A DNA stretch of 64,000 bases from Stegostoma tigrinum (GCF_030684315.1 NC_081391.1:15291342-15355341), one strand, 5' to 3'. Positions 2,353 through 63,975 are shown, counted from the first letter of the stretch. A program made the numbers and translations. Notes: a model not told the origin generated them from the letters alone.

Positions 2353-4134
2353 TGTTAAATTCCAGACAGCCAGATGAAGAATGATTTGGGAGTCAATGTT
2401 GACTCAGTCAAGTATTTATTTACCAGTAAAACACGAGTAGATACCTCCTCACTGAAATACACCACCACTGTTATAACAAGTATTTCTTCACATATGCTCA
2501 AGTAAAACACAAATACGTCCATCCTCATAACTGAACAAAATTGATAAAAATAATATGGAAGTACAAGGCAGCTATCACAACATTTATCCCTCAATTAATA
2601 TTGTGATCGATTTCCGTGTTTTCAAACAGTATTTGATTGCGAGGCACTTGCTGGGCAAACATTGGCAACTACATTTTCTATACAGCAACATCATTATATT
2701 GCAAAACCAACTGTGAAAGTACTCAGGCACTCTGAAGCTGTGAAAGGCTTTTACATAAATACAAATTCTTCTTTCCATTTTTTGAATGAATAATTAAAAG
2801 CAAAATCTGGATGCACACATTTTCATTACTACTTGAAGAGATGATGTCCTGGCCATAAGATCATGATACACAGAAGCAAAACTAGACCATTCAGCCCACT
2901 GAGTCTGTTCTGCCATTCAATCATGTCTGATTTGTTACTTCACCTCGTTCTCTTGACTTCTCCCCATAATATTTGAACTAACAGTTCACAGTGAATCACA
3001 AAATAGATTCATTGATTTTACTAGTTGGTTGCCTGCAGGTCATTAGGAACTACACTTCAAAATATAAGGTACTTTGCAACATCCTGGGAAAGTGAACAAC
3101 AATATGTAAATGCAATCTTTCTATTCATTCCAATTTCGATCGTTTAACCTTAAATTAGAAAATGCATCGAAAGTTACAACTTGTCTTATTGAAAACTTTT
3201 GTTTTTCTAAATTGTTACTCATGTGAGGAATTCATTGTTGGTTTCCATCCTACAATATTTTGAGTCCAGGATAATTGTGGCAGGCATGAAAACTAAGACC
3301 ACAATGAAATTAGCTATAACCTTACTGTATAGTTAACCAAGCTTGAGGGGCCAAAAAGCCTACTCTCGTTCCCCGTTACTTACATCCTTATTCTGGTTAT
3401 CCTGCTCAATATCATTTGAAAATGCTCCAAAGTGGCAACTTTGAATAGTGCCTAGTTACTTCAACTAAAATTGTTGAAAAATAACAGCTATAAACTTTGT
3501 ATTTAAAGTCCAACTTCTGTGCCTTCAGGACTTTCCAAAATATTGATGGACAGCTGTAAGTTTGGAAATGTTTACCAAATAAAATTAATTGCTCCACAAC
3601 AAGTAAACTAAAGCATTCTTCACAACAATCGACTGTATTCATTAAGAGAAAGTTCTGCAACACTAAAGCAGAATGCTTGGTACCTTTAAACTGCTTTATC
3701 GTTTCTGGCTCAGTGAGCACCTAAGCTTTCAAAGGAGGGAGGTGATAAAGGTTTGAACCATGCAACGTCTTCTCTTTTCTCACTATGGTTTGTCTCCTTT
3801 TAAAGCAAATCTATGACATTATAACTGTCTTTCCCTTATAAAAATGATCACGCAACATGACACCACGGCAGCCAAGGTCCAAATTGAGTAGCACTCAAAA
3901 ATGGGAGTGATAGTGATAATGAACCCACTATTACAATGTTGATATTTAGAAGATTGCAATATGTTAGGAATGCCAATTTTATTGAACAAATACTTTACAA
4001 CAGTCTTCACCAAACAGGATACAATTAATATCCCTGCTGCAGCAATAAATCAGGAAACGGAAGGAGGTAGGAACTCTGTAAAATTGCAATCACCAGATAA
4101 ATGGTTCTTCATAAACATTACAGCTCCTTGCGAA

Positions 4135-6566
4135 GTCATGGGGGACTTCAACTTTCCAAATACTGACTGGGAACACTATAGTTTGAGTACTATAGATGGA
4201 TCAGTTTTTGTCTAGTGTGTGCAGGAGGGCTTCCTGACACAGTATGTTGATAGGCCAACAAGGGGCGAAGCCACATTAGATTTGGTACTGGGTAATGAGC
4301 CTGGCCAGGTGTTGGATTTGGAAGTAGGTGAGCACTTTGGTGATAGCGATCACAATTCTGTTATGTTTACTTTAGTGATAGAAAGGGATAGGTGTATACC
4401 ACTGGGCAACAGTTATAGCTGGGGGAAAGGCAATTACAATGAAATTAGGCAAGATTTAGGGAGCAGAGGATGGGGAGGGAAACTGCAGGGGATGGGCACA
4501 TTAGAAATGTGGAGCTTATTCAAAGAAAAGCTCCTGTGTGTCCGAGATAAGTATGTACCTGTCAGGCAGGGAGGAAGCTGTAGAGTGCGGGAGCTGTGGT
4601 TTACGAAGGAAGTGGAATCTCTGGTCAAGAGGAAGAAGGCGGCTTATGTCAGGATGAGATGTGAAGGCTCAGTTAAAGCGCTTGAGGGTTGCAAGATAGC
4701 CAGAGAGACCTACAGACAGAGCTCAGAAGAGCCAGGAGGAGACATGAGAAGTTGTTGGCGGATAGGATCAGGGTAAACCCTAAGGCTTTCTATAGGTATT
4801 TAAGGAATAAAAGAATGACGAAAGTAAGATTAGGGCCAATCAAGGATAGTAGTGGGAAGTTGTGTGTGGAGTCAGAGGAGATAGGGGAAGCGCTAAATGA
4901 ATATTTTTCGACAGTATTCACTCTAGAAAGTGACAATGTTGTCGAGGAAAATACTGAGATACAGGCTACTAGACTAGGTGGGATTGAGGTTCACAAGAAA
5001 GAGGTATTAGAAATTCTACAGAGTCTGAAGATAGACAAGTCCCTTGGGCCGGATGGGATTTATCCTAGGATCCTCTGGGAAGCCAGGGAGGAGATTGCCG
5101 AGCCTTTGACATTGATCGTTAACTCATTATTGTCTACAGAAATAGTGCCAGGCGACTGGAGGATAGCAAATGTGGTTCCCCTGTTCAAGAGGGGGAGTAG
5201 AGACAACCCTGGTAATTATAGACCAGTGAGCCTTACCTCAGTTGTTGGAAAAGGTTATAAGAGATAGGATTTATAATCATCTAGAAAAGAATAATTTGAT
5301 TAGGGATAGTCAGCATGGTTTTGTGAAGGGTTGGTCGTGCCTCACAAACCTCATTGAGTTCTTTGAGAAGGTGACCAAACAGGTAGATGAGAGTAAACCG
5401 GTTGATGTGGTGTATATGGATTTCAGCAAGGCTTTCGATAAGGTTCCCCACAGTAGGCTATTGTACAAAATGCGGAGGAATAGGATTGTGGGAGATATAG
5501 CAGTTTGGATCAGAAATTGGCTTGCTGAAAGAAGACAGAGGGTGGTAGTTGATGGGAAATGTTCATCCTGGAGACCAGTTACTAGTGGTGTACCGTAAGG
5601 GTCGGTGTTGGGTCCACTGCTGTTTGTCATTTTTATAAATGACCTGGAGGAGGGCGTAGAAGGATGGGTTAGTAAATTTGCAGACGACACTAAGGTCGGT
5701 GGAGTTGTGTATAGTGACAAAGAATGCTGTAGGTTGCAGAGAGACATAGATAAGCTGCAGAGCTGGGCTGAGAGGTGGCAAATGGAGTTTAATGCGGACA
5801 AGTGAGAGGTGATGTACTTTGGTAGGAGTAAACGGAATACAAAGTACTGGGCTAATGGTAAAATTCTTGGTAGTGTAGACAAGCAGAGAGATCTCGTCTA
5901 TGTACACAGATCCTTGAAAGTTGCCAACCAGGTTGACAGGGCTGTTAAGAAGGCACACAGTGTCTTAGCTTTTATTAATAGAGGGATCGAGTTCCGGAAC
6001 CATGAGGTTATGCTGCAGCTGTACAAAACTCTGGTGCGGCTGGACTTGGAGTATTGCATACAGTTCTGGTCACTGCATTAGAAGGGGGATGTGGAAGCTT
6101 TGGAAAGGGTGCAGAGGAGATTTACTAGGATGTTGCCTGGTATGGAGGAAAGGTCTTACAAGGAAAGGCTGAGGGACTTGAGGCTGTTTTCATTAGAGAG
6201 AAGGTTGAGAGGTGACTTAATTGAGACATATAAGATAATCAGAGGGTTAGATAGGGTGGATAGGGAGAGCCTTTTTCCTAAGATGGCGACGGCGAGCACA
6301 AGGGGGCATAGTTTTAAACTGAGGGGTGAAAGATATAGGACAAATGTCAGAGGTAGTTTCTTTACTCAGTAGTAAGGAAATGGAACGCTTTGCCTACAAC
6401 GGTAGTAGATTCGCCAACTTTAAGTACATTTAAGTCGTCATTGGACAAGCATATGGACGTACATGGAATAGTGTAGGTTAGATGGGCTTCAGATTGGTAT
6501 GACAGGTCGGCACAACGTCGAGGGCTGAAGGGCCTGTACTGTGCTGTAATGTTCTATGTTCTATGT
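4135..6566 (+). mobile_element. Young 5'-truncated CR1 (L3/HER1-type) LINE, ORF2 endonuclease-RT disabled by stops and frameshifts
   Basis: APE endonuclease motifs MGDFN, TLDLVL and SDHN; RT motifs PGNYRPVSLTS, QHGFVKG, DFSKAFDKVPH, LGPLLFVIFINDL and KFADDTK; 3' tail (gttctat)n ending at ~6566. Confidence 0.95.
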
Positions 6567-29549: not shown

Positions 29550-31980
29550 AACAATGTTACCTAACAGGTTGACAAAACGTTTGCACCCAAACCCACCAGC
29601 TCAGCAAGCATGTCTACAATCTCATCCACAACCCGAGCTACAAATCTTCGAAAAATTTAAAGGCCTATGGATGCAATTCCCTCAAACTGGCCTGCAGATG
29701 GGAAACAAATGCCAATCGGCTGAGCATGACCCACGAATGACTATACTTCCTGCAAGAAAATGCCTCAGAAAGCAGGTACACCACAAAACTTAAAATATAA
29801 ACCACCTATCAACAATCCACTGGCACAGAGGACAGCTTAACAGAACAGCCACAGAATAGTAAGAGTTATGGTCAACAATGCCCACTACCGCCTTCACAAA
29901 TACAAGCGGGAAATTGCATGCCAAAAGACTCTGTACTCCAACTCAACTGAGTAGGAACGGACATCCATACTGGAGCAAGCCATCAGCATACAACTAAAGA
30001 CCAGAATTTAAAAAATAGACTTACGAGAAAAACTGTCCAAAATCACCCTCATCAATGACACAGACAACGCAGTTTCATGGATTAAAAACATCTCAGGCTG
30101 ACCACTTACAGACAGAGAAGACCATCCTAGTATGCAGATTGAACTATAACTGCAGAAATGCCAAAAAAAACTGACTTCCTTGGTGCACTCAAATTGACAC
30201 TAAAGGGAAACGACTCCCGGAAAAAGTACAGACCATCAGACAGACAATAGTCAAAACAAAAGCAACACTGAGCAAAAAAGGTAAGTGGAATACATTCAAC
30301 ACAGGAGAGGAAAGACTTAAGAAAGACAGGAACATTGTAATCTTACCAGCGGACAAAGGACACATGACAGTAATCCTCAATAGAGCCCAACATATTGAGA
30401 AAGCTAACGCATACTAGCTGATACTGACACCTACCAACAAATGGCATTAGACCTGATACTAGATAGGGAACTGGGTTACAATGTCCCTGAAGAAATTACA
30501 CAACTCAGGAGACATCACCAAGACATACTACCAAAAAAATGAAGCCAGAGGGATCCAACACACCCTGTTTCTATGGACGCCCCAAGGTACACAAACGGGG
30601 GAAGGTGATCCCCCTCAGATCCACATCTCACTACCAGGCACACTAACATATAGACTTGCCAAAGAACTACGAAACAGAAATTGAAATACTTGTTGACAAC
30701 TTAGATGATGAGATGATGATATCCTTCAATGTAACAGTGCCATTTATGTCCATAAACATCAAACCTAGCCAAAGAGACGATTGCCACACGACTGGACGAA
30801 TCAAGTAGGCAGGCATCCCAGGACACCAACATCAGTAAGGAGACCACCATGAAACTACTAGATCTGTGGCTCAGAACCCACTTCACCTTCAATGGCTACA
30901 TATACAATCAAATCAACGGAACACCAATGGGATCCCCAATATCAGGACTGATGGCAGAAGCAGTAATGCAAAGGTTAGAATGGACAGTGCTCCCCACCAC
31001 ACAAGCCAAACTTTGGGCCTAATATGTAGATGGCACCTTCATGATTATCTAACACACAAAACTAGATGGAAACCAATGACACTTAAACAATACCCTCACC
31101 AGGATAAAATTCACTAAAGAGAACCACCACCAACTATCCTTCAGGAACATAATGGTAGAACACAAAAATGAGTACTCCAGACTAGCGTATATAGAAAGAC
31201 CACACATACAAGCCAGATACTCAATTACCCTAGCAACCATCCCAATGCCCACAAATGCAGCAGCATCAGGACATTATTTAAAAGAGCCACAACATATTAC
31301 AGCAACCCGGAAGAATGTATAGCCGAACAGGATCACCTATACGGAGTCTTCAAAAGGAACAGAAACCCGAAAAGTACTCACCAATCACCCTACCGTACAT
31401 CAAGGACATTTCAGTAATGACCGCAAGACTACTCAGACCCCTAGGTATCAGAGTGGCTCACAAACCAACCACCACCCTACAACAGCGACTGAAGAACATA
31501 AAGGATCCCATACCCAAAGCCAGCAAAGTCAGTATACTATACAAAATACCAAGCAAGGACTGAGAAACACTAGTAGGCCAATCCAGAAGAAAACTGACAA
31601 TACGGATACACAAACACCAAATAGACAAGTGGCACAACCATTTCTCACTTGTCTCCCAACATACTGACGAGGGACATAAATTTGACTGGGGCAACACATT
31701 CATAGTCACACAAGCCAAACAGAGGCACACCAGGGAATTTCTGGAGGCCTGGTATTCTAACTAGAATTCCATCAAACACATTGAATCAGACCTTGTGTAC
31801 AAACCACCAAGAAACAGAACCAGAAGTGGTACCAAATACCCCAAACTGAGGCATTTAAATAACAAGCAGGACAGAACACCGACACTTCACCGGGGACACA
31901 CTGACGATGTTACCGAGTCGGGTAATGAAATGTTTGCAACCAAACCCATTAGCTCAAAAGCATGTCTACAACCACGAAAA
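29550..31980 (+). mobile_element. Near full-length degenerate Penelope-like retrotransposon (RT plus GIY-YIG, pLTR pieces at both ends)
   Basis: ILPADKG; YNQINGTPMGSPISGLMAEAVMQRLE; degenerate YVDD; ITLPYIKDIS..TARLLRPLGIRVAHKP; LYKIP; REFLEAW. Similar pLTR sequence at ~29555-29655 and ~31900-31980, with an HHR-like core at 31898-31937. Confidence 0.9.
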
Positions 31981-35169: not shown

Positions 35170-38095
35170 CACTAAGACTTCCTCTGGGGCAGGGGTGATC
35201 TGTACAAAAGGGACAGGTTGCACCTAAACTGAAAGGGAATCAATATCCTCACTGGGAAGTTCACTAGTCCTGCTCAGGAAGGTTTAAAATAGAGTGGCAG
35301 GGGTCTGAGGACCAGAGCAGCAGGTCAGCAAGAGTGGGGATTGAGGGAAAGGTACATAATAGGATCAGTAAATCATTAAAAAAAAGGACAGGCAGAGACA
35401 GTACATGAACACGATGATACTAATGGGCTTAAGTGTACTTACTCCAATGCAAGGAATATTATAGGTAAAGCAGATTATCTTCGTCCCATGTACTGATCCA
35501 GGCTCTATGATGTTGCAGCCATTAAAGAGACTTGATGGGAGAACAGGACTGGCTGCTCAACGTTTCAGGGTTTTGTTGATTTAGGCAAGGTGGAGAGGTA
35601 GATAAGAGAGGCGGAGGAGTTGCATTACTAATTAGGGAGAATCTGCACTCACAGAAGACACACTGGAGGACTCACCCACTGAGGCAATAGGGGTAGAGCT
35701 CAAAAACAAGATGGGTGCAATCACTCTGATGGGATTATACTATAGGACCCCCAACTGCCACCAAGACATTGAGGAACAAATATGTAGGCAGAATATGTAA
35801 AAGTGCAATAAAAACAGAGTTGTCATTGTGGGTGACTTTAATTTCCCCAATACTGACTGGGGCTCCCTTACAGCAAGAGGCTTAGACCAACAATTTGTTA
35901 AGTTCATCCAAGAAGGTTTTTTGAAACAGTATGTGGATAATCTGACTGAAGGAAGGGCCATACTGGACCTCATACAGGCTAATCAGCCTGGCCAGGTGAC
36001 TGACCTTTCAATGGGACAGCATTTTGAAACAGTGATCACACTTCTAAGTTTTAAGACCGCTATAAATAAGGTAAGTCAGGGCCTTGTGACAAGGTACATT
36101 TGAATTAGGTAGGAGCTAGGGAGTGTTAATCAGGAGGGGCTGTCATTAGGCAAGTCCACATTTGACATGTGGGAATTGTTTAAAGACCTGCTGATCAGAG
36201 TTCAGGGCCAGCATGTTCCAGTAAGGAAGAAAGACAAGGATGGCAAGGTATGGCACCCATGGATAATGAGGGAGACTTGAAATTTAGTCAAAATGAAAAA
36301 AAAAGCAGCATAAGATAGATTTAGGAAGCTATAATCAGATAGCACAGGACAAAGGTTAAAGGGAATCCCAAGGCATTCTATTCATACATGAAAAACGAGG
36401 ATAACCAGGGAAAAGGTAGGCCTACTTAAGGATAAAGCAAGGAACTTGTGTTTGGAGGCAGAGTATTGAGTGAGATCCAAAATGAGTACTTAGCATCAGT
36501 ATTCACCCAGGAGAAAGGTATGGAGGATAGTGAAATTTGTTTGGAGCATGCCAATATGCCACACCATTTTAAGATCAAGACAGAGGTGGTATTGAATCTC
36601 TTGAAGAGCATTAATGTGGATAAGTCCCCAGGGCCCAATGATCTGTACCCCAGGCTTTAAGAGAGGAGAATACTGGGGGCGTGACCAAGATCTTTGTAAC
36701 CTCATTAGCCACTGGAGGGGTCCTGGAGCACTGATGAGCATCTGATGTTGATACTCTGTTCAAGAAGGGAAATAGGGATAATCCAGAAAACTATAGAACA
36801 GTGAGTCTCCTATTGATGGTTGGAAAGCTATTGGTGTGAAGTTTTAGGGGTAGGATTTACATGCATTTGGAAAAACATAGGCTAATTAGGGACTGTCAGC
36901 ATAGCTTTGTGCAGGGCAGGTCATGTCTTACTATCTTCATGGAATTTTTTGAGGTGACAAAGGTGATCAATTGAGGGTACAGCAGTGGACATTGTCTGCG
37001 GATTTTAGTACAGTTTTCAACTTGGTCCCTCATAGCAGGCTCATCCAGAAGATTAGAATGCATGGGATCCACAGTGACTTGGCTGCATGGATTCAGAATC
37101 AGCTTGGCCATAGAAGATAGCCAGTTAGTGGGAGAATGTTTTTGAGGGTGAAGGTCCACGACTAGTGGTGTTCCACAAAGATCCATACTGGGACCTCTGC
37201 TGTTTAGTGATATAAATAACAGACTCAGATGAAAATGTGGATGGGTGAGTTAGTAAGTTTGCAGACAATACAAAGATCAGTGGACGTGTGGACAGTGTAG
37301 AAGGTTGTCAAGGATACAGCAGGATGTAAATCATTAGAGAAATAGCTGATGGAGAGAGGCGCTGAGCTTTGGGAGATTAAATGTTAAGGAAAAGTATAGA
37401 GTTAACGGATGAACCCTGAACAGCATTGTTGTGCAGAGGAACCTTGGGGTTCAAGTCCATAGCTTCCAGAATGTGGCCACATATGTAGAGAAGGCATATA
37501 GCATGCTTGTTTTTATTGGTCTGGGAATTGAGTACAGGAATCAGGATGTCATGTTGTAGCTCTATAAGACTTTTGGTTAGGCTATGCCAAGTACCGCATT
37601 CAATGTTGGTTACCTCATTACAAGGAGGATGTGGTGGCTTTGGACAGGGTGCAGAAGAGGTTTACCAGGATGTTGCCTGGATTAGATAGTATTAACCATA
37701 AAGAGGCACTAGAAAATCTCTCTGGAGTGGTGGAGGCTGAGGGGACACTTGATAGAAACCTATAAAATTAGTAGATGAATAGTAAGGGTTGACAGTCGGA
37801 ATCTTTTTCTCATAGCTGAAATGTCTAACACAGGGTGGGGTGTTCAAAATACTCCTGAGAGGAAGGGTTTTTTTTAAAAAAAACACAGTGGTGGGAGTCT
37901 GAATGCACTGCCAAGGGTGGAGGTGCAGGCAGATAAGATAAGGGCATTTGAGACTTTTAGATAAGCACATGAATATGCAAAGAATGGAGATATGGACCAA
38001 GGACAGGCAGAAGGGATTAGTTTAACTTGGCATCACGTTGGCACATCATCATGGGCCAAAGGGCCTGTTCATTTGCTATACAGTTCTATGTTTAG
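35170..38095 (+). mobile_element. Degenerate CR1 LINE including the end of the ORF1 esterase and most of ORF2
   Basis: WGRGDLYKRDRLHLN (SGNH esterase block V-like), LKCTYSNARNI, GDFNFPNTDW, DKSPGPNDLYPRL, SKFAD and a CR1 3' tail. Confidence 0.9.
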
Positions 38096-40135: not shown

Positions 40136-41400
40136 AGATAATAAAATGTGAGGCTGGATGAACACAGCAGGCCAAGCAGCATCTCAGGAGCACAAAAGCT
40201 GACGTTTCGGGCCTAGACCCTTCATCAGAGAGGGGGATGGGGAGAGGGAACTGGAATAAATAGGGAGAGAGGGGGAGGCGGACCGAAGATGGAGAGTAAA
40301 GAAGATAGGTGGAGAGAGTATAGGTGGGGAGGTAGGGAGGGGATAGGTCAGTCCAGGGAAGACGGACAGGTCAAGGAGGTGGGATGAGGTTAGTAGGTAG
40401 CTGGGGGTGCGGCTTGGGGTGGGAGGAAGGGATGGGTGAGAGGAAGAACTGGTTAGGGAGGCAGAGACAGGTTGGACTGGTTTTGGGATGCAGTGGGTGG
40501 AGGGGAAGAGCTGGGCTGGTTGTGTGGTGCAGTGGGGGGAGGGGACGAACTGGGATGGTTTAGGGATGCAGTAGGGGAAGGGGAGATTTTGAAACTGGTG
40601 AAGTCCACATTGATACCATTAGGCTGCAGGGTTCCCAAGCGCAATATGAGTTGCTGTTCCTGCAACCTTTGGGTGGCATCATTGTGGCACTGCAGGAGGC
40701 CCATGATGGACATGTCATCTAGAGAATGGGAGGGGGAGTGGAAATGGTTTGCGACTGGGAGGTGCAGTTGTTTGTTGCGAACTGAGCGGAGGTGTTTTGC
40801 AAAGCGGTCTCCAAGCCTCCGCTTGGTTTCCCCAATGTAGAGGAAGCCACACCGGGTACGGTGGATGCAGTATACCACATTGGCAGATGTGCAGGTGAAC
40901 CTCTGCTTAATGTGGAATGTCATCTTGGGGCCTGGGATAGGGGTGAGGGAGGAGGTGTCGGGGCAAGTGTAGCATTTCCTGCGGTTGCAGGGGAAGGTGC
41001 TGGGTGTGGTGGGGTTGGAGGGCAGTGTGGAGCGAACAAGGGAGTCACGGAGAGAGTGGTCTCTCCGGAAAGCAGACAGGGGTGGGGATGGAAAAATGTC
41101 TTGGGTGGTGGGGTCGGATTGTAAATGGCGGAAGTGTCGGAGGATGATGCGTTGTATCCGGAGGTTGGTAGGGTGGTGTGTGAGAACGAGGGGGATCCTC
41201 TTAGGGCGGTTGTGGCGGGGGCGGGGTGTGAGGGATGTGTTGCGGGAAATACGGGAGACGCGGTCAAGGGCGTGCTCGATCACTGTGGGGGGAAAGTTGC
41301 GGTCCTTGAAGAACTTGGACATCTGGGATGTGCGGGAGTGGAATGTCTTATCGTGGGAGCAAATGCGGCGGAGGCGGAGGAATTGGAAATAGGGGATGGA
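40136..41400 (-). mobile_element. Young 5'-truncated Penelope-like element with an open RT C-terminus/GIY-YIG frame
   Basis: ORF 40453-41415 (SIPYFQFLRLRRICS..., IPLVLTHHP, CNRRKCYTC, NVVYCIH..CGFLYIGETKRRLGDRFAKH). Its ATG comes from flanking DNA. Confidence 0.92.
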
Positions 41401-42317
41401 TGATGATGTAGACATTTACTTCTCATGCAATTATAATGATCCTTCAATAATTACATAGCTTCATGCTTGCTGCAATGATGAGCAATTAACATTAGTCAAA
41501 AGTTAACCTATAAAATTCTAGCAGGGCTAGACGGTAAACACAGAAATGCTGTTTCCAGGTTGTCCAGAACCAGTCAAAGGATCTGGGGTAGGCCATTTAG
41601 GACTGAGATTAGGAGAAATTTCTTCACCAGCAATATTGAGCCAGTGGAATTCTCTGTTCCAGAAAGCATATTTTCAAGGAATTAGATATAAATCTTAGCG
41701 CTAAATGGAGAAATGGTATGCCTTTGATGCCCACATTCCATGAGTGAATAAACTCCTCACCCACCTACAAGGAGAAGATTCTAACCTTGACCACCCCAAC
41801 TGGATGAAAGGCCATGCCCAAGTATTTTTCTGTTCCTCTCTCTCACTGTCTATCTGATTCATAACTATATTTTCTGATTTTTTTTCTCTCCCCCTCTCAT
41901 TATCAACCTGTTTCTCTCATTATTTCTTTGGCCCTCTTTTCTATCTCCCTAAATCCTTCTGTTTTTCACAGTCTTGGTGTTTCCTCACCGTGTCTGACTT
42001 TTTCATCGTATTGCTCTGACTCTCTCCATATCTCTCTTTCCTTTGTTGCTCTAAACCTTGATTATCTGCCTATCTCTGATCTTCTCTATTTCTATCTCAA
42101 ATCTATGATGCTCCCCCTTTATCATGCATCCCTACTCATTAGTTTTTTACTTTCTTTCACGCTCAGTCTCACAATCTGATTTCCCCATACACTATGTCTT
42201 TCAGGGGATTTTTCAATCTGTTTCTCCTTTTTGTATGATTGTAAGCACTGGACTGGAATTCTGATCCTGTCAATGCCTTGATATTTTTTGCAAAGTAAAA
42301 ATGCTATTAATCAGATG

Positions 42318-44670: not shown

Positions 44671-45555
44671 CGTTGTTATTTAGAAAATAACAATGATCTG
44701 ATAGCCATTACAGGGATGTGGCAGCAGGATGACAAAGATTGCAAAAGAGAAACTTTTCTCTATTCACCATGTTCCACTCTGAGGCACCTCACTACAAGTG
44801 CAATATATATTGCTGTGGATATTGCATTTTTCAGTCAGGTTTTGAGGACACCACTTTGAGGAGGAGTCTGTTAAGTCAGTATCAAACTTGGCATCATAGT
44901 TCCTGACTAATCCTATTTTTCTGTGTTTTTAATTAACTCCCTAACTTAAAGATCCTCCCCAAAATCTTTTGGTTTCAACTACAGTCAGCAGTTTAAATGA
45001 CCTATGTATAAACAACACAAGCAAGTTGTGACATAAATATTGTTTTAATTTTTAAAATATCAACATTTGAAAAGGTGTTTAAACGTACAGTACACTATAC
45101 ACAAAAACCTTATACTATGCACATCCATTGCACTCAAAATGCAACTGCTACTTAAGTTAATTGTTAATTTACAATTCATTTCAAGTATTACTCAAGTGAT
45201 AGAGTTTAGTGCATTGCTTGGAAATGCCATCAATAATGAAAGTGAATTTTCTCTTTTTCCTCCAGAATGTTTGGGGGAGTCTCGCAGTTTCCATAAATTA
45301 CATCCACCCTAACCCCAGCCAATCCCATCTAGATCTACTGATTAGAATCAGAGAACTTTTGAGCGCTGTTTCAAAGTAAGTGAAAATTTCTTTAGTGAAG
45401 CCCCCAGTGGGTGCTTTCCCCTATAATTAATTTGGAAAAGTAAATGGTGGGGAGGGGAGGTGAAAATTAAAGTCTTCACAGAATCACAGATGCAGCCACT
45501 AATCCCAGCCTCTGCAGGAGGGGCCAACACTTAAATCAACACAGTCTGCGCACTT

Positions 45556-45562
45556 GCGCGCA

Positions 45563-45625
<63 letters not shown>

Positions 45626-45634
45626 GCACACACA
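45556..45634. repeat. (CA)n microsatellite with flanking (CG) dinucleotides
   Basis: Directly visible alternating purine-pyrimidine tract. Confidence 0.97.
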
Positions 45635-48600
45635 GATATATATCCAGCATGTTTATAAAATCGTTTAAAATTGATTAACTTTGATGTGCACATGATGGAA
45701 GCAAATTGTAAACAACATATAAAATCATGATTCATGAAGTTTTGTCACAATACAGTTCTAATTTCTAGGCTTCAACGTAACCATTACCTTTGGTGGTACG
45801 TCAACAACTCTATGTATATTTAGATAACACCTCTAACATCCTAAAATGCCCCAAGGCACTTCACAAGAGCATTATAAAACAACATGTGACACCAATCCAT
45901 ATATGGCAATGTTAGAAATAAAAACAAAGTGTGGAGAAACTCAGCAGATCTGGCAATATCTTTGGAGAGAGAAGCAGAATTAACATTTTAAGTCTGATAT
46001 GACTCTACTTTGTAATAGGCGATATTGGGTCGGGTGACCAAAAGGGAGGAAGCTTTTAAGCAGTAAAGTGAGATAGAGAGATTTAGGCAGGAAATTTCAC
46101 AACTTAGAACCCTGGTGACTGAAAGCAATTGAAATGTGCCTCAGCGCTCAAGATTCGAGAACTGGATGAGTGCAGTGATCTGAGAGGTGTGTGCAGCTAG
46201 AGGAAATCATAGAAATAGGAAGGAATTTGAGAAGAAGGATGAACACTCTAAAATTGCTTGATCAGGAGCGTAAGCAAATCAGAAGGCCTTTGGGAAACAA
46301 GACTTGCCATGAGTTATGACACAGGCTGCAGACTTCCGAATGACCTCGGGTTTTTAGAGGGTAGAATTTGAGAGACCCGCCAGGAGTGCATTGGAATGGT
46401 AAAGGTGAGAAGTCATGAAGGCCTGAATGAGGTAAGGGTTTCAGCAGCAGATGAGTTGAGACAGGGGTGGTATCCAGGAGGTGGAAATAGGCACCCTTTG
46501 AGAAGATGCCTCATTCCAATCCAAATAGTTTTCCAATCCAATTGCTGAACATGTTTTCTGGTTATTGTAAAGCAATTTCATGAATTATATCAGTACTGCT
46601 GGATCCTAAATATTTGAACTGTATTGACTCAAAACACTTGAAATTAAGTTCAGAAATAACTCTATAAACATCCTGTATGATATGTGCATATGTACATATA
46701 CATACATATAAATATTGCATATGCATAATACAAATGTGTTTTTTCCCTTCCCAGTAGTTTATAGTGTTCACACTGCACAGCTCTTGGGGAAAGTGTCTGC
46801 TGGTGAAAACTCCACGACTGCTGCCTGTGTCTAGTGAGGAGGTACCAGGAGACAATTTGGAGTACCTTTCATCGCCAGTTATTCTCATTACTAGCAGCAA
46901 TGTGTCACACTTGCTTGAGAAACTGAATTTCTAATTAAAGGGTGTTTATGTCGCAGAGATGGGGAAAGTGAGCGGCATTGTGTGGCAGACTCAAGCAACT
47001 CAGCAGTGCCAAAATTTGAGATCTGCAAATCAATAACCAAATAAACTCAACCACACTTGATGCAACAACTTTGCCGTGCCCATAACGAGAGTGAGGCATT
47101 CCTATCACCACACTGACTGCGCAGCTCACAAAGTCTGCTGGTCCCTGTTGGACAGTGCGACTTATACCTTTGATCTGTGAAGCTGGAGGTAGTCAACAGA
47201 AGACCCCATCTATCTCTTAGCATCAGCCACACACATTCCTGCTCCTCAGCGGGGAAAACGTGGCCCATCAACAGTCGTCAGTCAATTAGAATGGGCACTG
47301 CTCTTGTTGGTTGAGACGTTGGGTTGGAGTATTTGGTGGGTGGACCCACTGGATTTCCAGTTCTACTTTACATGTGTACTGATGAGGTGGCACAATGCTG
47401 TAGATTCCGTGACCCCTTCCCCTTACTCCCACTGCAGGATAGGCCCTTAAAGGTATGGTTCCACACAACATTTTTTTTAGCAAAAGTTTTTTTTTGAGGA
47501 ACAGGCATCTTTAAGGCTAATGACCCTTGCTAAGTTCTAGCACTGATTCTAGAGGAACTGATACCTTCTACAAACCCGGCATTTTGTGATCAGTCTGTGA
47601 ATTTGGAGCAAATAAATAGTTCAGAAATATATATAGGAGTGGAGGAAATCACAGAGAATGGGAAAGTTGCTTGATTATTTGCTTCACAAGGTGCTATTTT
47701 CCCTTCCTTGAAACCAAACAGAAAGAATATAATTGGGCCAGGTGGCCATGGAAAAATACCCCATTCTCACCATCCCACTCATTAAGTTTGGGTGAGAAGG
47801 TCCATTGGTCAATTAATGGACACTTGAGGGCCTCAACTTATCACTTCCAGGACTTAAGATTTTGGAGTGCCATGGTGGAGTTTCTACCTCTGACTGTCAA
47901 GTCCAACTTGCTCTAGAGGTGTGTCACAACATGTTTGAACAGGTTGATGAGAAATATCTACCACCTGCTCTATCACCTGCCTTGGTTGTGGGTGGGAAAG
48001 GTGTCTTGTTTCATGACCAGATGTGGGGTTAGAAAGGAGGGACCTCCAATTTCCCCAATAGAGGGTCAATTGGAAACCTCCAGAAGGAAAATCCAATCAG
48101 AATTGTCAAACTAGACGCACTAATCTGACTCACCGTTTGCACTTCAAAATAGATCATTTAAAAACATGACTATTTCTCAAATTGGTTTTTTCTTTGGGAT
48201 GGACAAGGATTGGCTGTCTGATATCTCCTGGCCTTGACCATGACCCCATACCCCGATCTCCACAATAAGAAGATAACTAACAATGCCCCATGGAGTAGGC
48301 CTCGATTGGTAATCCTTAGGACTGGAAGCTGAATGACTGGCGGCTTCTGGCAACCTGAGACACCAGGCGGGCTACAAGTCAAGTTGCTCAATGGTGGGGT
48401 GCTAGGTTAGTGGCCACCTAACAGGCCTACCTACACACTTTAAACCAAAGTTAGAAAATCGGAACCCGATAAGCTTTTCTTTGAAAGTCTACAATCTCTT
48501 TCAGTTTTTTTTGGGGGGGGGGGTGAATAAAGTTTATTTCTTCTTCCCAACCTTAGTTTTCTTTATGGTGAGGGGAGAGGCTGGTATACCTGGTGTTACA

Positions 48601-48692
48601 TTTAGCCAAAACAAAGCATATTTATTTTTTAAAATTCAGTCACAGGATGTGGACATCACTGAACTAGGTTGGCAGTTTTCTTTCCTGTAAAG

Positions 48693-48925
48693 AACTGCGG
48701 ATGCTGTAAGTCAGAGACTAAAAATAGAAGTTGCTGAAAAAACTCAGTAGGTCTGGCAGCATCTGTGGAGAGAAATCAGAGTTAATGTTTGGGTTTGAAT
48801 GACCCTTCCTCAGAACTGGGAGGGGTCTGAGGAAGGGTCACTTGACCCAAAACGTTAACTCTGATTTCTCTCCACAGGTGCAGCCAGACCTACTGAGTTT
48901 TTTCAGCAACTTCTATTTTTGTCTC
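48693..48925. mobile_element. Palindromic Penelope-derived element with a decayed hammerhead core
   Basis: Arms of ~100 bp (~48715-48814 and ~48826-48925). ctgaggaagggtcacttgacccAAAAcgttaact shows the core GAAA mutated. Confidence 0.75.
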
Positions 48926-49191
48926 TTTCCCCACCCCATCCCTAAATTCTAGAGGACAATTAAAAGCCAATTACATTGCTCTAGGCTTGAGTCACTAAAA
49001 GCTACACCAGGTGAAGATCACAGATTCCTTCCCCAGCAGATATTATTGATTTTTACTTTATGCCTGGTTCCTTCCCCCACACATCCTCCACTCCTTTAAG
49101 AGGCAGTAGATGTGGACTGTGCCTGTCTAGGTTGTGTGGTGCAAGTTGGGTGAGAGCTGGAGGTGAAGGAGATCAATCAGGATTTCTCCCC

Positions 49192-49444
49192 TTACTTCTT
49201 TTCCACCAATCTGTGCATTTGGAGCTTCCTGCACCTGGCAAAAAGTGAGATTAGGCTCCTCCGCCGACGTTTTCCGTAGCCATTGGGGTCATCTGTACTT
49301 TTTGGGGGACTTGGCTCCTTCCCTTTAGGTCCCAGCTGGTAGAGTCTATAGGCCAGGTTGAGAGTGTTGCAGATGCCCAGGAAGCAGCGCGAGGGCTTGT
49401 ATTTGTTGTCGGGGCCACGTTTAACTCTACCTTTTGGCACTGTA
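49192..49444 (-). CDS. adm5: Adrenomedullin-family (AM5-like) precursor, last coding exon, encoding the mature peptide
   Basis: Branch point ACTAAC plus a T-rich tract and CAG acceptor (phase 2). Encodes TVPKG-RVKR-GPDNKYKPSRCFLGICNTLNLAYRLYQLGPKGKEPSPPKSTDDPNGY-G-KRRRR-SLISLFARCRKLQMHRLVEKK*: a 6-residue Cys ring, an NLAxxLYQxG helix and a P-x-G-Y-G-K-R amidation site. The family call is strong; the paralog symbol is less certain. Confidence 0.9.
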
Positions 49445-50678
49445 CTGGAATTCAAACCAAACCAAAACAAAAAGCAGTCTGTTAGTTACCAGCCATGAAT
49501 CCAATTGGACAAGAGGCCATTCATCCCACTGTGCTTGTGCTGATCATTTTGAAAGAGCTTCCCAATTTACAAAACTCAGCCCTGCAGTCCCGTCTCTCTT
49601 TCTTCTTTTAAGATTCTTCCTAAGACATGCTTTTCTGATGAAACCTTTGCTCCTAATATCTTATGAAAGCTGTCAAACTATTAACTGGTTATCAACCATG
49701 TAAAATACCTTGGGATATTTTACTCCATGAAATGTGCTGCATAAATGCAACATGTTATGCCTGTCCTTTTCCACTGATTCCCCCCACAGCCATAGAGTTA
49801 TAGAAATGTACAGCACAGAAACAGATCCTTCAGTCCAACTCACCCGTGCCAACCAGATATCCTAAATTAATCTAGCCCCGTTTGTCAGCATTTGGCCCAT
49901 ATCCTTCTAAATCCTTCCTATTCATGTACCCATTCCAGAAGCCTTTTAAATGTTGTAATTGCACCAGCTTTCCCCACCTTCTCTGGCAGCTCATTTCATA
50001 CATGCACCACCCTCTGCTTGAAAAAGTTGGTTCCTTTCAAATACCTGCCCCTCTCACCTTTCTATGCCCTCTAGTTTTGGACTTCCCTAACCTGGGGAAA
50101 AGTCTTTTGATATTCACCCTTTCAATGTTCCTCATGATTTTATAATTTTTGTAAGGTCACCCCTCAGCCTCTGACATTCCTCAAAATTGTTTCCCTGATA
50201 TTGCTGAAAAGAGAGATGTGTTGCCTAAATGCTTGATCATTTGCTTATCAGGACAAATGCAAGAATGCCAAATGTCAAATAAACACAACTTACACTCGTC
50301 AAATAAAGGATGCCAATTCTTTGGCAGTTGAACTACGATTGGCCAAAGCATTGTCATGGAGAAAGCAACAGCAAATTATATTTCTTCCTATGCCACCAGG
50401 AAATTTAAAAAAAAAGCAAGGTTTGCAACACACTCCTTTAGTTTGTGAATTATTTCATATGTCGGAACCCACACTCTGTAAACAGCAGGCTGTTTTACTG
50501 TGATGGCCTCACACCTGTTAATATTCTGATTTAGTGCCAATTTTCTAGGCAGGGTAACCAGTGACCAAAGTGGTGTAGGAGTGTGGCCCATCAGAGAATC
50601 AGGTGCAGGACCTTCTCCCTTCCCCAGTTGAACACCACACTCGTACTCACAAAACTAAGAAGGGAGCTCTACAGGGTA

Positions 50679-51326
50679 ATAAAATGTGAGGCTGGATGAA
50701 CACAGCAGGCCAAGCAGCATCTCAGGAGCACAAAAGCTGACGTTTCGGGCCTAGACCCTTCATCAGAGAGGGGGATGGGGGGAGGGAACTGGAATAAATA
50801 GGGAGAGAGGGGGAGGCGGACCGAAGATGGAGAGTAAAGAAGATAGGTGGAGAGGGTGTAGGTGGGGAGGTAGGGAGGGGATAGGTCAGTCCAGGGAAGA
50901 CGGACAGGTCAAGGAGGTGGGATGAGGTTAGTAGGTAGCTGGGGGTGCGGCTTGGGGTGGGAGGAAGGGATGGGTGAGAGGAAGAACCGGTTAGGTTCCT
51001 TCCTCCCACCCCAAGCCGCACCCCCAGCTACCTACTAACCTCATCCCACCTCCTTGACCTGTCCGTCTTCCCTGGACTGACCTATCCCCTCCCTACCTCC
51101 CCACCTACACCCTCTCCACCTATCTTCTTTACTCTCCATCTTCGGTCCGCCTCCCCCTCTCTCCCTATTTATTCCAGTTCCCTCCCCCCATCCCCCTCTC
51201 TGATGAAGGGTCTAGGCCCGAAACGTCAGCTTTTGTGCTCCTGAGATGCTGCTTGGCCTGCTGTGTTCATCCAGCCTCACATTTTATTATCTTGGAATCT
51301 CCAGCATCTGCAGTTCCCATTATCTC
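50679..51326. mobile_element. Young Penelope pLTR insertion in inverted (head-to-head) form, within the last intron of the adrenomedullin gene
   Basis: Arms 50677-50968 and 50998-51289 are reverse complements. 14-bp TSD agctctacagggta at 50665-50678 and 51327-51340. Confidence 0.95.
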
Positions 51327-51680
51327 AGCTCTACAGGGTAGCTTCCTTGGCTCATTAATAACATCATGTTCTAAGCCCACAGCCTCTACCACAGAGAAAG
51401 AAAGGGAAACATGGGAATACAGCACCTACAATGTCCCATTAAAGCCATACATCTTCCTGACTTGGAAATGTATTGCTGTTCCTTCAATCTAGCTGGTTCA
51501 AAATTCTGACTGTCCTTCCCTGACAGCAATGAGGGCTTGCCTGTACACCACAGATTCAAGTGTTTCAAAAAGGTGGCTCACCACTGCCTTCTCAAAAGGG
51601 GAATAGGGATGGCTAACAAATTTTGGCACAGCCAGCAATCCCCACATACGCCAAACGAATATTAAAGAACTACAAAATAC

Positions 51681-51860
51681 CTGTCATTGATGCTTCCCTC
51701 CCTGTTCTCCAATTTAGAATCCAGGAAACCTGTAGCAGAGTCAGATGCAGAGGTGATTTGGGACTGTGGGACACTCTTTACCTGTGGCTCCAAAAGCTTC
51801 ACGTTGGAATTTTGCAGATTTTGAAGAAATAACTGGAAAGCAGGTGAGGGACCTGGGTTT
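51681..51860 (-). CDS. adm5: Adrenomedullin-family precursor, middle coding exon (propeptide)
   Basis: Acceptor tttctttgtccctccccAG and donor GACAG|GTATTT. 180 nt, phase 2/2, open in the required frame (NPGPSPAFQLFLQNLQ...EGSIND). Confidence 0.85.
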
Positions 51861-52645
51861 CTGGGGAGGGACAAAGAAACACAGGAGCAGGTTAAATTAG
51901 AAACCCCTAACAGACTCAGCAAAAAACCTATATTGATATGGCATCTTTAATGTGATGAAAGATATGCAGGAGGAAAATTTGACAACGGGACATATAAGGA
52001 CAGGTTTTGCCTCATCACCAAAAGCTTGGTCCGAGAGGCGGAGTTTATGGAGGATCTTAAAGGAGGATGCAAAGACTCAGATGTAGGAAGGAACTTTCAG
52101 AGTTTCATCCTCTGCAAATGGAAGCATTGCCACCAATGCTGGAGCAATTAATATCAGATTTGCACAAGACATCAGAATTAGAGGAAGTGAAGATACCTCA
52201 GAGGGTTGTGGGTCTGGAGGAGATTAGAGATGGGGTAGGGAGGGACTGAGGCTATGGATGGATTTGAAAACCAGAAGAAGTATTTTATGATGAAGACATT
52301 GCTTAACCAGGAGTCAATGTGCTACATAACTTCCATAGAGATTTGTAGAAGCTGACAGTTCATAAATTAACCAGATGTATGTTGAGCTGTATAAATGAGT
52401 GATTCCTGGTAAATCTCACATTGTGAGGTTAACTGTCTTCTCCTTTAATTCACTCCATAAAGCCTCCCTTACTAATCAAACTCACCAGGTCCTGATATCC
52501 GGGGCCCCAGTGTTAAATTTTTGATTGATACAGTTCCTATGCTGTGCCATGCTATGTTTTTAATTGCGTTAAAGGGCAAATAAATGCCAGTTGTAATACT
52601 TTGGAAGTTCAACAGCAAGGAATAGAAAGTATGGCAATCTCTTAC

Positions 52646-52731
52646 CTTTTGGTTCTGGCCAGCGCCTGTGTTTCAACAAGGACGCCCATGTGGAAATATA
52701 ACATTGCGACGAGCACAAACACCACTGTCAT
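52646..52731 (-). CDS. adm5: Adrenomedullin-family precursor, first coding exon (signal peptide)
   Basis: Acceptor ttttcAG (exon starts 52742), ATG at 52731, hydrophobic MTVVFVLVAMLYFHMGVLVETQALARTK, donor AAAG|GTAAGA (phase 2). The spliced ORF is 519 nt, 172 aa. Confidence 0.88.
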
Positions 52732-53404
52732 GATCTCCCGATCTGAAAATCCACACAGGTGGCAAAATTAATCAAATGTTGAGTCACTGCTTGGTTCATG
52801 TTCCCTAGCAGCCGATTGGTAACAGATGAAATCAGTCTGTTCACAATCTTGCTGACTTCGAGATGAGTTTCATCCTCTGGTCAAGGAACAGGGGACTGAG
52901 TTGGATGATCAGCCATGATCATGTTGAGAGACGGAGCAGGCTTGAAGGGCCAAATGACCCACTCCTGCTCCTGTTTTCTATATTTCTATATCCTCACATT
53001 TGCACCGCCACTAAAACCTTTGGTTTTACTGTGAAACACCACCTGCCCTGATCCCTGTTTCACTCATCCGCTGTTTAAATCCTCTTTCGTGGTGTTGTTA
53101 CATTCAGCTTTGATAATCCTCCTGGAAGGTCTCCCAAATTCTATCCTCTCCAAATCTCTGCTGCCAATCTTTGAGTCGGCAACAAATCGTGTTTCCCCTA
53201 TCTCCCAACCTGTGCTCACTACATGACACTGGTTTCCAGTAAAGCAACACCTAGCTTTTAAAATTCTCAAAATTGTGTTCAAGCCCTTCCTTGGCCTAAC
53301 CACTATTGTCCCCCTCATCTTTCCACATCTTTGTAACTTTACTTCGTCCTGCATCCCTTTGTGATATCTGCTCTCCTTGTATACTGACCTTGATTGTAAG
53401 CACC

Positions 53405-63084: not shown

Positions 63085-63570
63085 GTGCTGCCATAGTAGC
63101 CGAGTTGCACACAGCAAGCTCCCACAAACTGGCAATAATGACCTGATAACTTGTTTGTGATGTTGATTGAGGGATAAATATCAGCTGGGACGCCGGGGAA
63201 GGAGAACATACTTTATCTTCTTTGAAACTGTGCCATGCAATGCTTCCTCTAAATTTTCTTGCAGTTGCATAGAACTCTGAGGGCCACGCGTGGCTGCAGC
63301 TGCCAGAGAAAGCAGAAGCCAATGCATCAGAACACCAATTGACAACTGTAGAGTTTCCCAGGAGTTGCATGGCTGCACAGCTTACAGCAGCATTGGTGGC
63401 ATGGTATCTTGCCACCATAGAAGATAGAAGATGCCTGGGTTTAACATCTCACAAGGAAAGAAATTGCATTCCCAATGACACAGTATCTTAGTAATATGCT
63501 AGAGAATCAGCCTTGATTTTTTAACACTTACATCATGAAGTGGGATTTGAACTGAGAGCCCTGTGCCCCA
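63085..63570 (-). mobile_element. Deu-domain SINE remnant
   Basis: cacagcaagctcccacaaac...tgatgttgattgagggataaatat...gtgccatg...gtttaacatctca, the antisense of the 54640 family. Confidence 0.55.
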
Positions 63571-63785
63571 TCAGGATTGCTCTGCACTGAGGCACCGGAT
63601 AGAACCAGTAGAATGATCAATTCCTATATTCAGAAGCTATCATTACCTTAAGGATAAGAAGACTCACCTCACCACAATGTCCAGAAGGTTAGAGTTCATT
63701 CAAGCATAACAGATGTTAAACCTGATACTACAAATTCTAATCTAACAGATACTTGTTTAAAATTAAATAAACATAAAGCACCTAC

Positions 63786-63925
63786 CTGTTTTGATCTGGT
63801 GTTACTGGGACTTCAGACTGTCTGAGTAATCAGGCTGTATGATATATTATTCCCTCACTGGTAACTGTCAGAATCACCAATCCCTGTATTTGTCCAGCTC
63901 CTGAGAGCTGCTCAGACTCTTTACT
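63786..63925 (-). other. Probable non-coding exon 1 of the adrenomedullin-family gene
   Basis: Donor ACAG|GTAGGT with the exon ending at 63786. No ATG in the exon. Inr-like CAGT lies 29 nt downstream of the CATAAAA box. Confidence 0.6.
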
Positions 63926-63975
63926 GTCTCATGCTGTGGACTGAAGGTTTTATGTTGTTGAAAGTGGGCGGGACC
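63926..63975 (-). promoter_or_regulatory. Core promoter candidate: CATAAAA box and GC box
   Basis: CATAAAA on the minus strand at 63954-63948; GGGCGG at 63966-63971. Confidence 0.55.

Follow-up and report, generated by a model that had tools for sequence, protein, structure and literature searches.

A spliced adrenomedullin-family gene of the zebra shark, best labeled adrenomedullin-5, with isoleucine in place of the ring threonine

Here, we present an analysis of a prohormone gene in the zebra shark, Stegostoma tigrinum, that lies in a window of 64,000 nucleotides (nt; GCF_030684315.1 NC_081391.1:15291342-15355341; positions are counted from the first letter of the window). The locus is a spliced adrenomedullin-family gene, beyond chance. 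Among the paralogs, adrenomedullin-5 (AM5) is the best-supported label, and comparisons of precursor sequences indicate that the gene is very probably the shark AM5 ortholog. The predicted mature peptide has Ile before the second Cys of its ring, where nearly all homologous rings have Thr. The gene itself is ordinary and already present in RefSeq; what is new is the loss of this Thr in galeomorph sharks and the assignment of the locus to AM5. We found neither in the open-access literature, outside which most of comparative endocrinology lies, and a published family alignment may already show such sequences.

The coding sequence lies on the minus strand in three exons (52731-52646, 86 nt; 51860-51681, 180 nt; and 49444-49192), and the exon with the ATG at 52731 has its own acceptor at 52742. 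Both introns (785 and 2236 nt) have GT..AG ends and pyrimidine tracts, and both junctions are in phase 2. The spliced precursor of 172 residues leads through RVKR to a 47-mer (49416-49276), followed by G-KRRRR and a tail (27 residues including the Gly). Exon 3 matches Pfam PF00214 with an E of 4.2e-6 and 27.7 bits, above the curated cut-off of 22.3, and a database atlas search gave back only the adrenomedullin family. Importantly, RefSeq XP_048377214.1 ("pro-adrenomedullin-like", Stegostoma tigrinum) is identical to the spliced protein (100% over 172 residues); thus, the gene is already annotated, and our junctions are concordant with an independent model. Both junctions are also spanned without gaps by three other carpet-shark proteins (from the whale, epaulette and bamboo sharks).

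These observations bear out the initial annotation of this DNA, which had proposed three in-frame exons for a 172-residue precursor of the calcitonin/CGRP/adrenomedullin family: the exons are supported by the GT-AG splicing, the RefSeq identity and the carpet-shark alignments, and the family by PF00214, matches in the PDB and again the RefSeq identity. RVKR, the 47-residue peptide and G-KRRRR were found in the spliced translation as described. The claim of a complete gene holds for the coding sequence; the transcript likely extends further 5', into a likely upstream noncoding exon (63974-63786). The RTKR that the initial annotation had listed ahead of the propeptide is present here but is not conserved beyond the carpet sharks, being replaced by STSR, SDDR, SVDR, DTDR and STNR in five other sharks; judging by these sequences, RTKR is probably confined to carpet sharks and unlikely to be a needed cleavage site. 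Coding exon 2 contains a strong-looking internal donor (CAG|GTAAAG at 51781), and a transcript spliced from it to 49444 would leave the original frame and no longer encode the peptide.

Homologs were collected with an AM5-weighted profile, of which 120 of the 165 matches were listed, and 140 proteins were stored. Orthologs occur in at least 15 named sharks and rays, the zebra shark included, and no chimaera is among the 120 matches listed. Because the orthologs extend throughout sharks and rays, the gene is old, and the lineage-specific paralog that the initial annotation had kept as an option is unsupported. Sharks also carry a separate AM1-like gene, "adrenomedullin a" (P0120, P0126, P0131, P0139), which has an AM1-type prepro region, yet its mature peptide groups with AM2 and hagfish adrenomedullin. 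Two diverged AM5-like genes lie on one contig in the ray Rhinoraja longicauda (P0009, P0010), as do two AM5-like genes in Acipenser sinensis (P0014, P0015), while one gene model of Anolis sagrei (P0008) contains two AM1-type peptides.

The zebra-shark ring reads C-F-L-G-I-C. A total of 139 of the 140 stored proteins contributed 140 rings, and Thr directly precedes the second Cys in 133 of them; the seven rings without Thr are those of all seven galeomorph-shark orthologs of the AM5-like gene, six with Ile and one with Leu. The Ile codon is covered by zero-difference contigs in runs X8 and X11, and these clean contigs, together with the loss of Thr in six other species, show that Ile is not an assembly error. 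According to PMC3904261, the agonism of CGRP depends strongly on Thr6: Cys at this position abolished efficacy, Ala and Ser cut potency, and no tested substitution was tolerated; an earlier study had found Val6-CGRP inactive, and replacement of Thr20 in adrenomedullin reduced potency. In the same source, AM4 of two pufferfish and CRSP2/3 are the only members without Thr at this position, and their agonism is doubted (PMC3904261). This Thr, near-invariant but with known exceptions, is not a requirement for family membership.

The pace of change in the peptide differs between groups. In carpet sharks, the mature peptide is identical at 47 of 47 residues across four genera, compared with 84-90% identity in the prepro part, which suggests that the mature peptide is under purifying selection there. 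Between galeomorph orders, identity from ring to amide is 57-82%, near that of the prepro part (47-73%). The paralog "adrenomedullin a" is 97-100% identical from ring to amide in a shark set that overlaps with this one, and the squalomorph and ray orthologs 82-100% (seven of seven pairs tested). In this comparison, the peptide of S. torazame was 2 residues short and that of Amblyraja was cut at an internal KR, with small effect. We infer from these alignments that Thr was lost once in galeomorph sharks and that rapid divergence of the peptide followed. AM5 of anthropoid primates may likewise carry a hydrophobic residue at the position of the ring Thr; if so, the change would be less singular, that is, convergent rather than unique. 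In Cetorhinus (P0005) and Mustelus (P0007), alone among the stored rings, the C-terminal residue of the predicted peptide is an amidated Phe rather than Tyr. CGRP ends in Phe-amide, and such an end may shift RAMP preference.

By analogy with the family, the peptide is likely a cardiovascular or osmoregulatory hormone that acts on a shark CLR/RAMP receptor that tolerates Ile. The precursor would be secreted, cleaved at RVKR and, after the Gly, at G-KRRRR, amidated and cyclised; the amidated C-terminal tail would then bind the outer domain of CLR/RAMP, and the ring and the helix would insert into the receptor core and cause cAMP output. Peptides of this family, once secreted and processed, activate CLR or CTR together with a RAMP. 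A six-residue Cys ring and C-terminal amidation are the family criteria given in PMC3259696. The zebra-shark sequence contains such a ring and the amidation signal Y-G-K-R, from which the disulfide and the amide are predicted, and a helix is predicted with low confidence right after the ring (residues 113-126, predicted local distance difference test [pLDDT] 66-68). In other vertebrates, AM5 of pufferfish acts via CLR1-RAMP3 (PMC6283891), and AM5 has a hypotensive effect in eel and rodents and is salinity-responsive in medaka (PMC4657274). Three points weigh against a hormone of this kind. The ring Ile, read in the light of the CGRP data, argues against normal agonism; mammalian AM5 is described as stimulating cAMP only weakly through CLR/RAMP pairs, with another receptor surmised (PMC3259696, PMC3483629); and the structure model has low confidence over the peptide (pLDDT 50-68). 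On balance, agonism at the sharks' own receptor would be most likely, but with weak activity at the standard CLR/RAMP pairs.

We consider it possible, if unlikely, that galeomorph AM5 instead binds CLR/RAMP through the amidated tail, which is intact, but fails to activate it, so that it is a natural antagonist or at most a weakly active partial agonist, or that it has been re-purposed, for instance as an antimicrobial peptide or for a decoy receptor. The confinement of Ile or Leu to the seven galeomorph orthologs, with Thr in all 133 other rings, fits this idea, as do the low ring-to-amide identity between galeomorph orders compared with "adrenomedullin a" and with squalomorphs and rays, the net charge of +3 of the peptide, and the doubtful agonism of CRSP2/3 and of AM4 from two pufferfish, which likewise lack the Thr (PMC3904261). 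However, the data on Thr were obtained with human CGRP on human receptors, and the receptors of sharks may have co-evolved with the peptide. In its more specific form, to which we give an equally low probability, galeomorph AM5 would act on CLR/RAMP receptors as their natural antagonist or as a partial agonist with bias, or would serve a different receptor as its ligand, and selection would maintain it within carpet sharks. If true, it would be an endogenous brake on adrenomedullin/CGRP signalling.

The assignment to AM5 is carried by the C-terminal tail of the mature peptide, by whole-precursor trees and by the prepro region. An Asp-Pro (DP) tail, of the form DP-x-x-aromatic-amide, is present in 90 of the 140 rings, including the zebra shark, all chondrichthyan orthologs and all six AM5-named proteins, and in none of the other 50, which include the AM1-type, AM2-type, hagfish and shark "adrenomedullin a" rows; the use of this tail as a criterion for AM5 was derived here from the named sequences. 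For the trees, 53, 31 and 30 of the 140 stored proteins were drawn for taxon spread, and paralog groups were assigned from sequence names and motifs. In the whole-precursor tree (30 rows by 145 columns), the chondrichthyan group has a support of 100/97 and falls with the AM5 of bony vertebrates, including medaka AM5, against AM1 together with AM2, hagfish adrenomedullin and shark "adrenomedullin a" (97/99 under LG+G4 and 100/99 under a mixture model). Six of seven constrained alternatives to this tree were rejected by the approximately unbiased (AU) test (p-AU < 0.05), among them the grouping with AM1 (AU p 5e-5 and 6e-4). The mature region gave the same split on the AM5 side (94/87 and 95/90), and one mature-peptide tree pulled the galeomorph rows from the other sharks (77/63). 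Finally, a profile built from the galeomorph prepro region alone, searched against 111 nonself targets of which 68 have the DP tail, returned only DP-tail precursors among its top 28. In the bony AM5 group, two turtle models are fused with pieces of CPT1 and NOSIP. Human ADM5 lies in the PRMT1, CPT1C and NOSIP region; the fusions fit this neighborhood and anchor the label for the bony group, not for the zebra-shark locus.

Several results weigh against this assignment. All trees are unrooted, with no CGRP or amylin outgroup; for the mature region alone, none of four alternatives was rejected (AU p 0.055-0.14); tetrapod prepro regions score low with the galeomorph profile (7-18 bits versus 6.9 for the best non-DP row); and the AM5 weighting of the profile, with 120 of 165 matches listed, means that AM2 is under-sampled. 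One alternative is that the gene is the chondrichthyan ortholog of AM2 (intermedin), which we regard as improbable. Its best ring-to-amide similarity is to an AM2-type row (19/37, score 92), with medaka AM5 at 17/35 and score 63; the grouping with the lone AM2-type row, which is partial and long-branched, is the one constrained alternative left standing (p-AU 0.058); and no other shark AM2 is among the matches listed. The PDB places human ADM2 (E 2.5e-5) first and ADM lower, but this ranking is nondiscriminating: the medaka AM5 control also puts ADM2 above ADM, and we dropped the ranking as a paralog test. Against AM2, the zebra-shark tail is DP rather than SP, a long tail follows the Gly where the AM2-type row stops, and both the prepro profile and the whole-precursor trees favor AM5. 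In the least probable reading, the genome duplications of early vertebrates left a fourth paralog that bony vertebrates no longer have, and the chondrichthyan group is this AM5-like gene. The group is distinct and well supported on a long stem, on which the root of the unrooted tree could lie, but it shares the DP tail, has prepro similarity to amphibian AM5, would require extra losses and is joined by no second AM5-like shark or ray lineage among the matches listed.

The phylogeny that the initial annotation had proposed as a check thus places the gene on the AM5 side and rejects AM1, but in unrooted trees it sets AM2 aside less firmly. AM5 remains the best-supported label. Of the two motifs on which the initial annotation had based it, the DDPNGY tail is diagnostic, whereas the helix stretch NLAYRLYQLG is not, the ring-to-amide region being closest to the AM2 type. 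The RefSeq record, the upstream exon and the change from Thr to Ile in the ring are additions to what the initial annotation described.

Upstream of the coding exons, the segment 63974-63786 is matched by N-terminal extensions of the Chiloscyllium, Scyliorhinus torazame and Mustelus gene models (tblastn E 3e-6 to 0.045). It has AG and GT ends, and when it is joined to the ATG exon, in-frame stops fall just before the ATG. These features make it a likely 5' untranslated region (UTR) exon behind an intron of 11,043 nt, and the stops add support for 52731 as the start. Because this exon has an acceptor, the first exon likely lies beyond 64000, outside the window. Just short of this exon, at 63261-63780, a 545-nt contig of run X10 maps within the intron and has 25 letters at its lower-numbered end that do not align; it may be a retained intron or another transcript.

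On the 3' side, contigs of run X10, which is not on record as RNA, cover 45346-48781 and 48904-49444. Contigs of runs X10 and X11 (one study, small, kind not recorded) end at the acceptor at 49444 with 65 extra unplaced letters, whereas those of the larger run read through 49444 without a break. None of the three junctions is in the joint table of read contigs, in its best 15 of 11,784 rows, which are mostly repeats. The contig ends at 49444 and the coverage downstream weakly hint at splicing and a long 3' UTR.

Table 1. Features of the zebra-shark gene in the window
Feature	Position (strand)	Description
Likely noncoding 5' UTR exon	63786..63974 (-)	189 nt; own acceptor; one 3-codon upstream open reading frame
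First coding exon	52646..52742 (-)	Acceptor, ATG and hydrophobic, signal-peptide-like N terminus; hydropathy up to 3.4; helix 2-25 in the model
Second coding exon	51681..51860 (-)	Propeptide; 60/60 residues identical to RefSeq protein P0001
Third coding exon	49192..49444 (-)	RVKR, mature peptide, Gly-KRRRR, C-terminal tail and stop
Predicted mature 47-residue amidated peptide	49276..49416 (-)	C-x4-C ring and DDPNGY end; processing predicted from motifs
Ring Cys codons	begin at 49386 and 49371 (-)	
Ring Ile codon	49372..49374 (-)	ATC; Thr at this position in 133/140 homologous rings
Possible long 3' UTR	45049..49191 (-)	AATAAA at 48626 and 48538; ATTAAA at 45049 and 44933

Elsewhere in the window, the lists of open reading frames and crude exon scans for neighboring genes gave retro-element remnants only. 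A Pfam scan of 300 of the 510 nonrepeat open reading frames of at least 42 residues (20954-61149, minus the gene's own region; a further 150 lie in the lowest 21 kb of the window and the last 20 past 61 kb) gave no neighbor exon, but one endonuclease match and one sub-threshold DM match. Short PRMT1 and CPT1 motifs had no match in the window, nor had the CPT1 and NOSIP pieces of the two turtle models by tblastn. No second copy or pseudogene was found in the window by tblastn of the 140 homologs or by the ring-amide motif. Repeats within the window make up ∼19% of it; broken retro-element remnants, recognized by eye as endonuclease/reverse-transcriptase of the long interspersed nuclear element type and GIY-YIG-like pieces, lie at 3943-6372, 30175-31760 and 40453-41415, and a PF14529 match lies at 35801-36100. 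The intron before the mature-peptide exon contains a 297-nt inverted repeat (50672-50968 and 50998-51294, 99% complementary, with 29 nt between the arms), both arms of which are a very abundant shark repeat. It is either a recent duplication in inverted orientation or an error of the assembly and would make a long hairpin in the pre-mRNA.

The inventory of the family was called incomplete in a 2018 review, which gives two adrenomedullin genes as known in cartilaginous fish (PMC6283891). Our findings add to this inventory by placing AM5 across sharks and rays. Moreover, the change from Thr to Ile or Leu in galeomorph sharks amounts to a natural experiment, as it alters the residue of the family most linked to activation; it bears on whether the receptor pocket was rebuilt or a natural antagonist arose, and on the unsettled question of the AM5 receptor.

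Compared with known systems, the closest entry is RefSeq XP_048377214.1, which is the same gene in a record without a paralog name. An AM5-like gene has reportedly been described in a dogfish by Wong and Takei in 2009. The AM5-like precursors of squalomorphs and rays (Heptranchias, Pristiophorus, Pristis, Mobula, Hypanus, Narcine, Amblyraja and Rhinoraja) are orthologous to that of the zebra shark, with up to 107 bits in the prepro profile and a place in the same 100/97 group; their peptides retain Thr and change slowly, and the zebra shark is identical to Heptranchias at 19 of 37 positions from ring to amide. The AM5 set of bony vertebrates comprises medaka AM5 (P0129), mammalian ADM5-like proteins (P0110, P0111, P0124, P0133 and P0140) and unnamed amphibian, sturgeon and coelacanth members. 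Like the zebra shark, these have a C-x4-C ring and a DP-x-x-Tyr-Gly tail, fall on the same side of the tree and, in the case of the amphibian members, have weak prepro similarity. The zebra shark differs from them by Ile in place of the ring Thr, is identical at 13-18 of 31-37 aligned positions from ring to amide, and retains, ahead of the tail, a P-P-K-S spacing like that of AM1, which is shortened in bony AM5. AM1, shark "adrenomedullin a" and AM2/intermedin have the family ring, amide, dibasic sites and PF00214 in common with the zebra shark, but their tails are of the SP type, unlike its DP. A conserved N-terminal segment of the AM1-type precursors, the PAMP region, is absent from the zebra-shark precursor, as is the ISP-x-GY tail. 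Similarly, the AM2/intermedin tail, of the type SP-H-S-Y and ending at the Gly, is not matched by the zebra shark, which does not group with AM2 in the trees.

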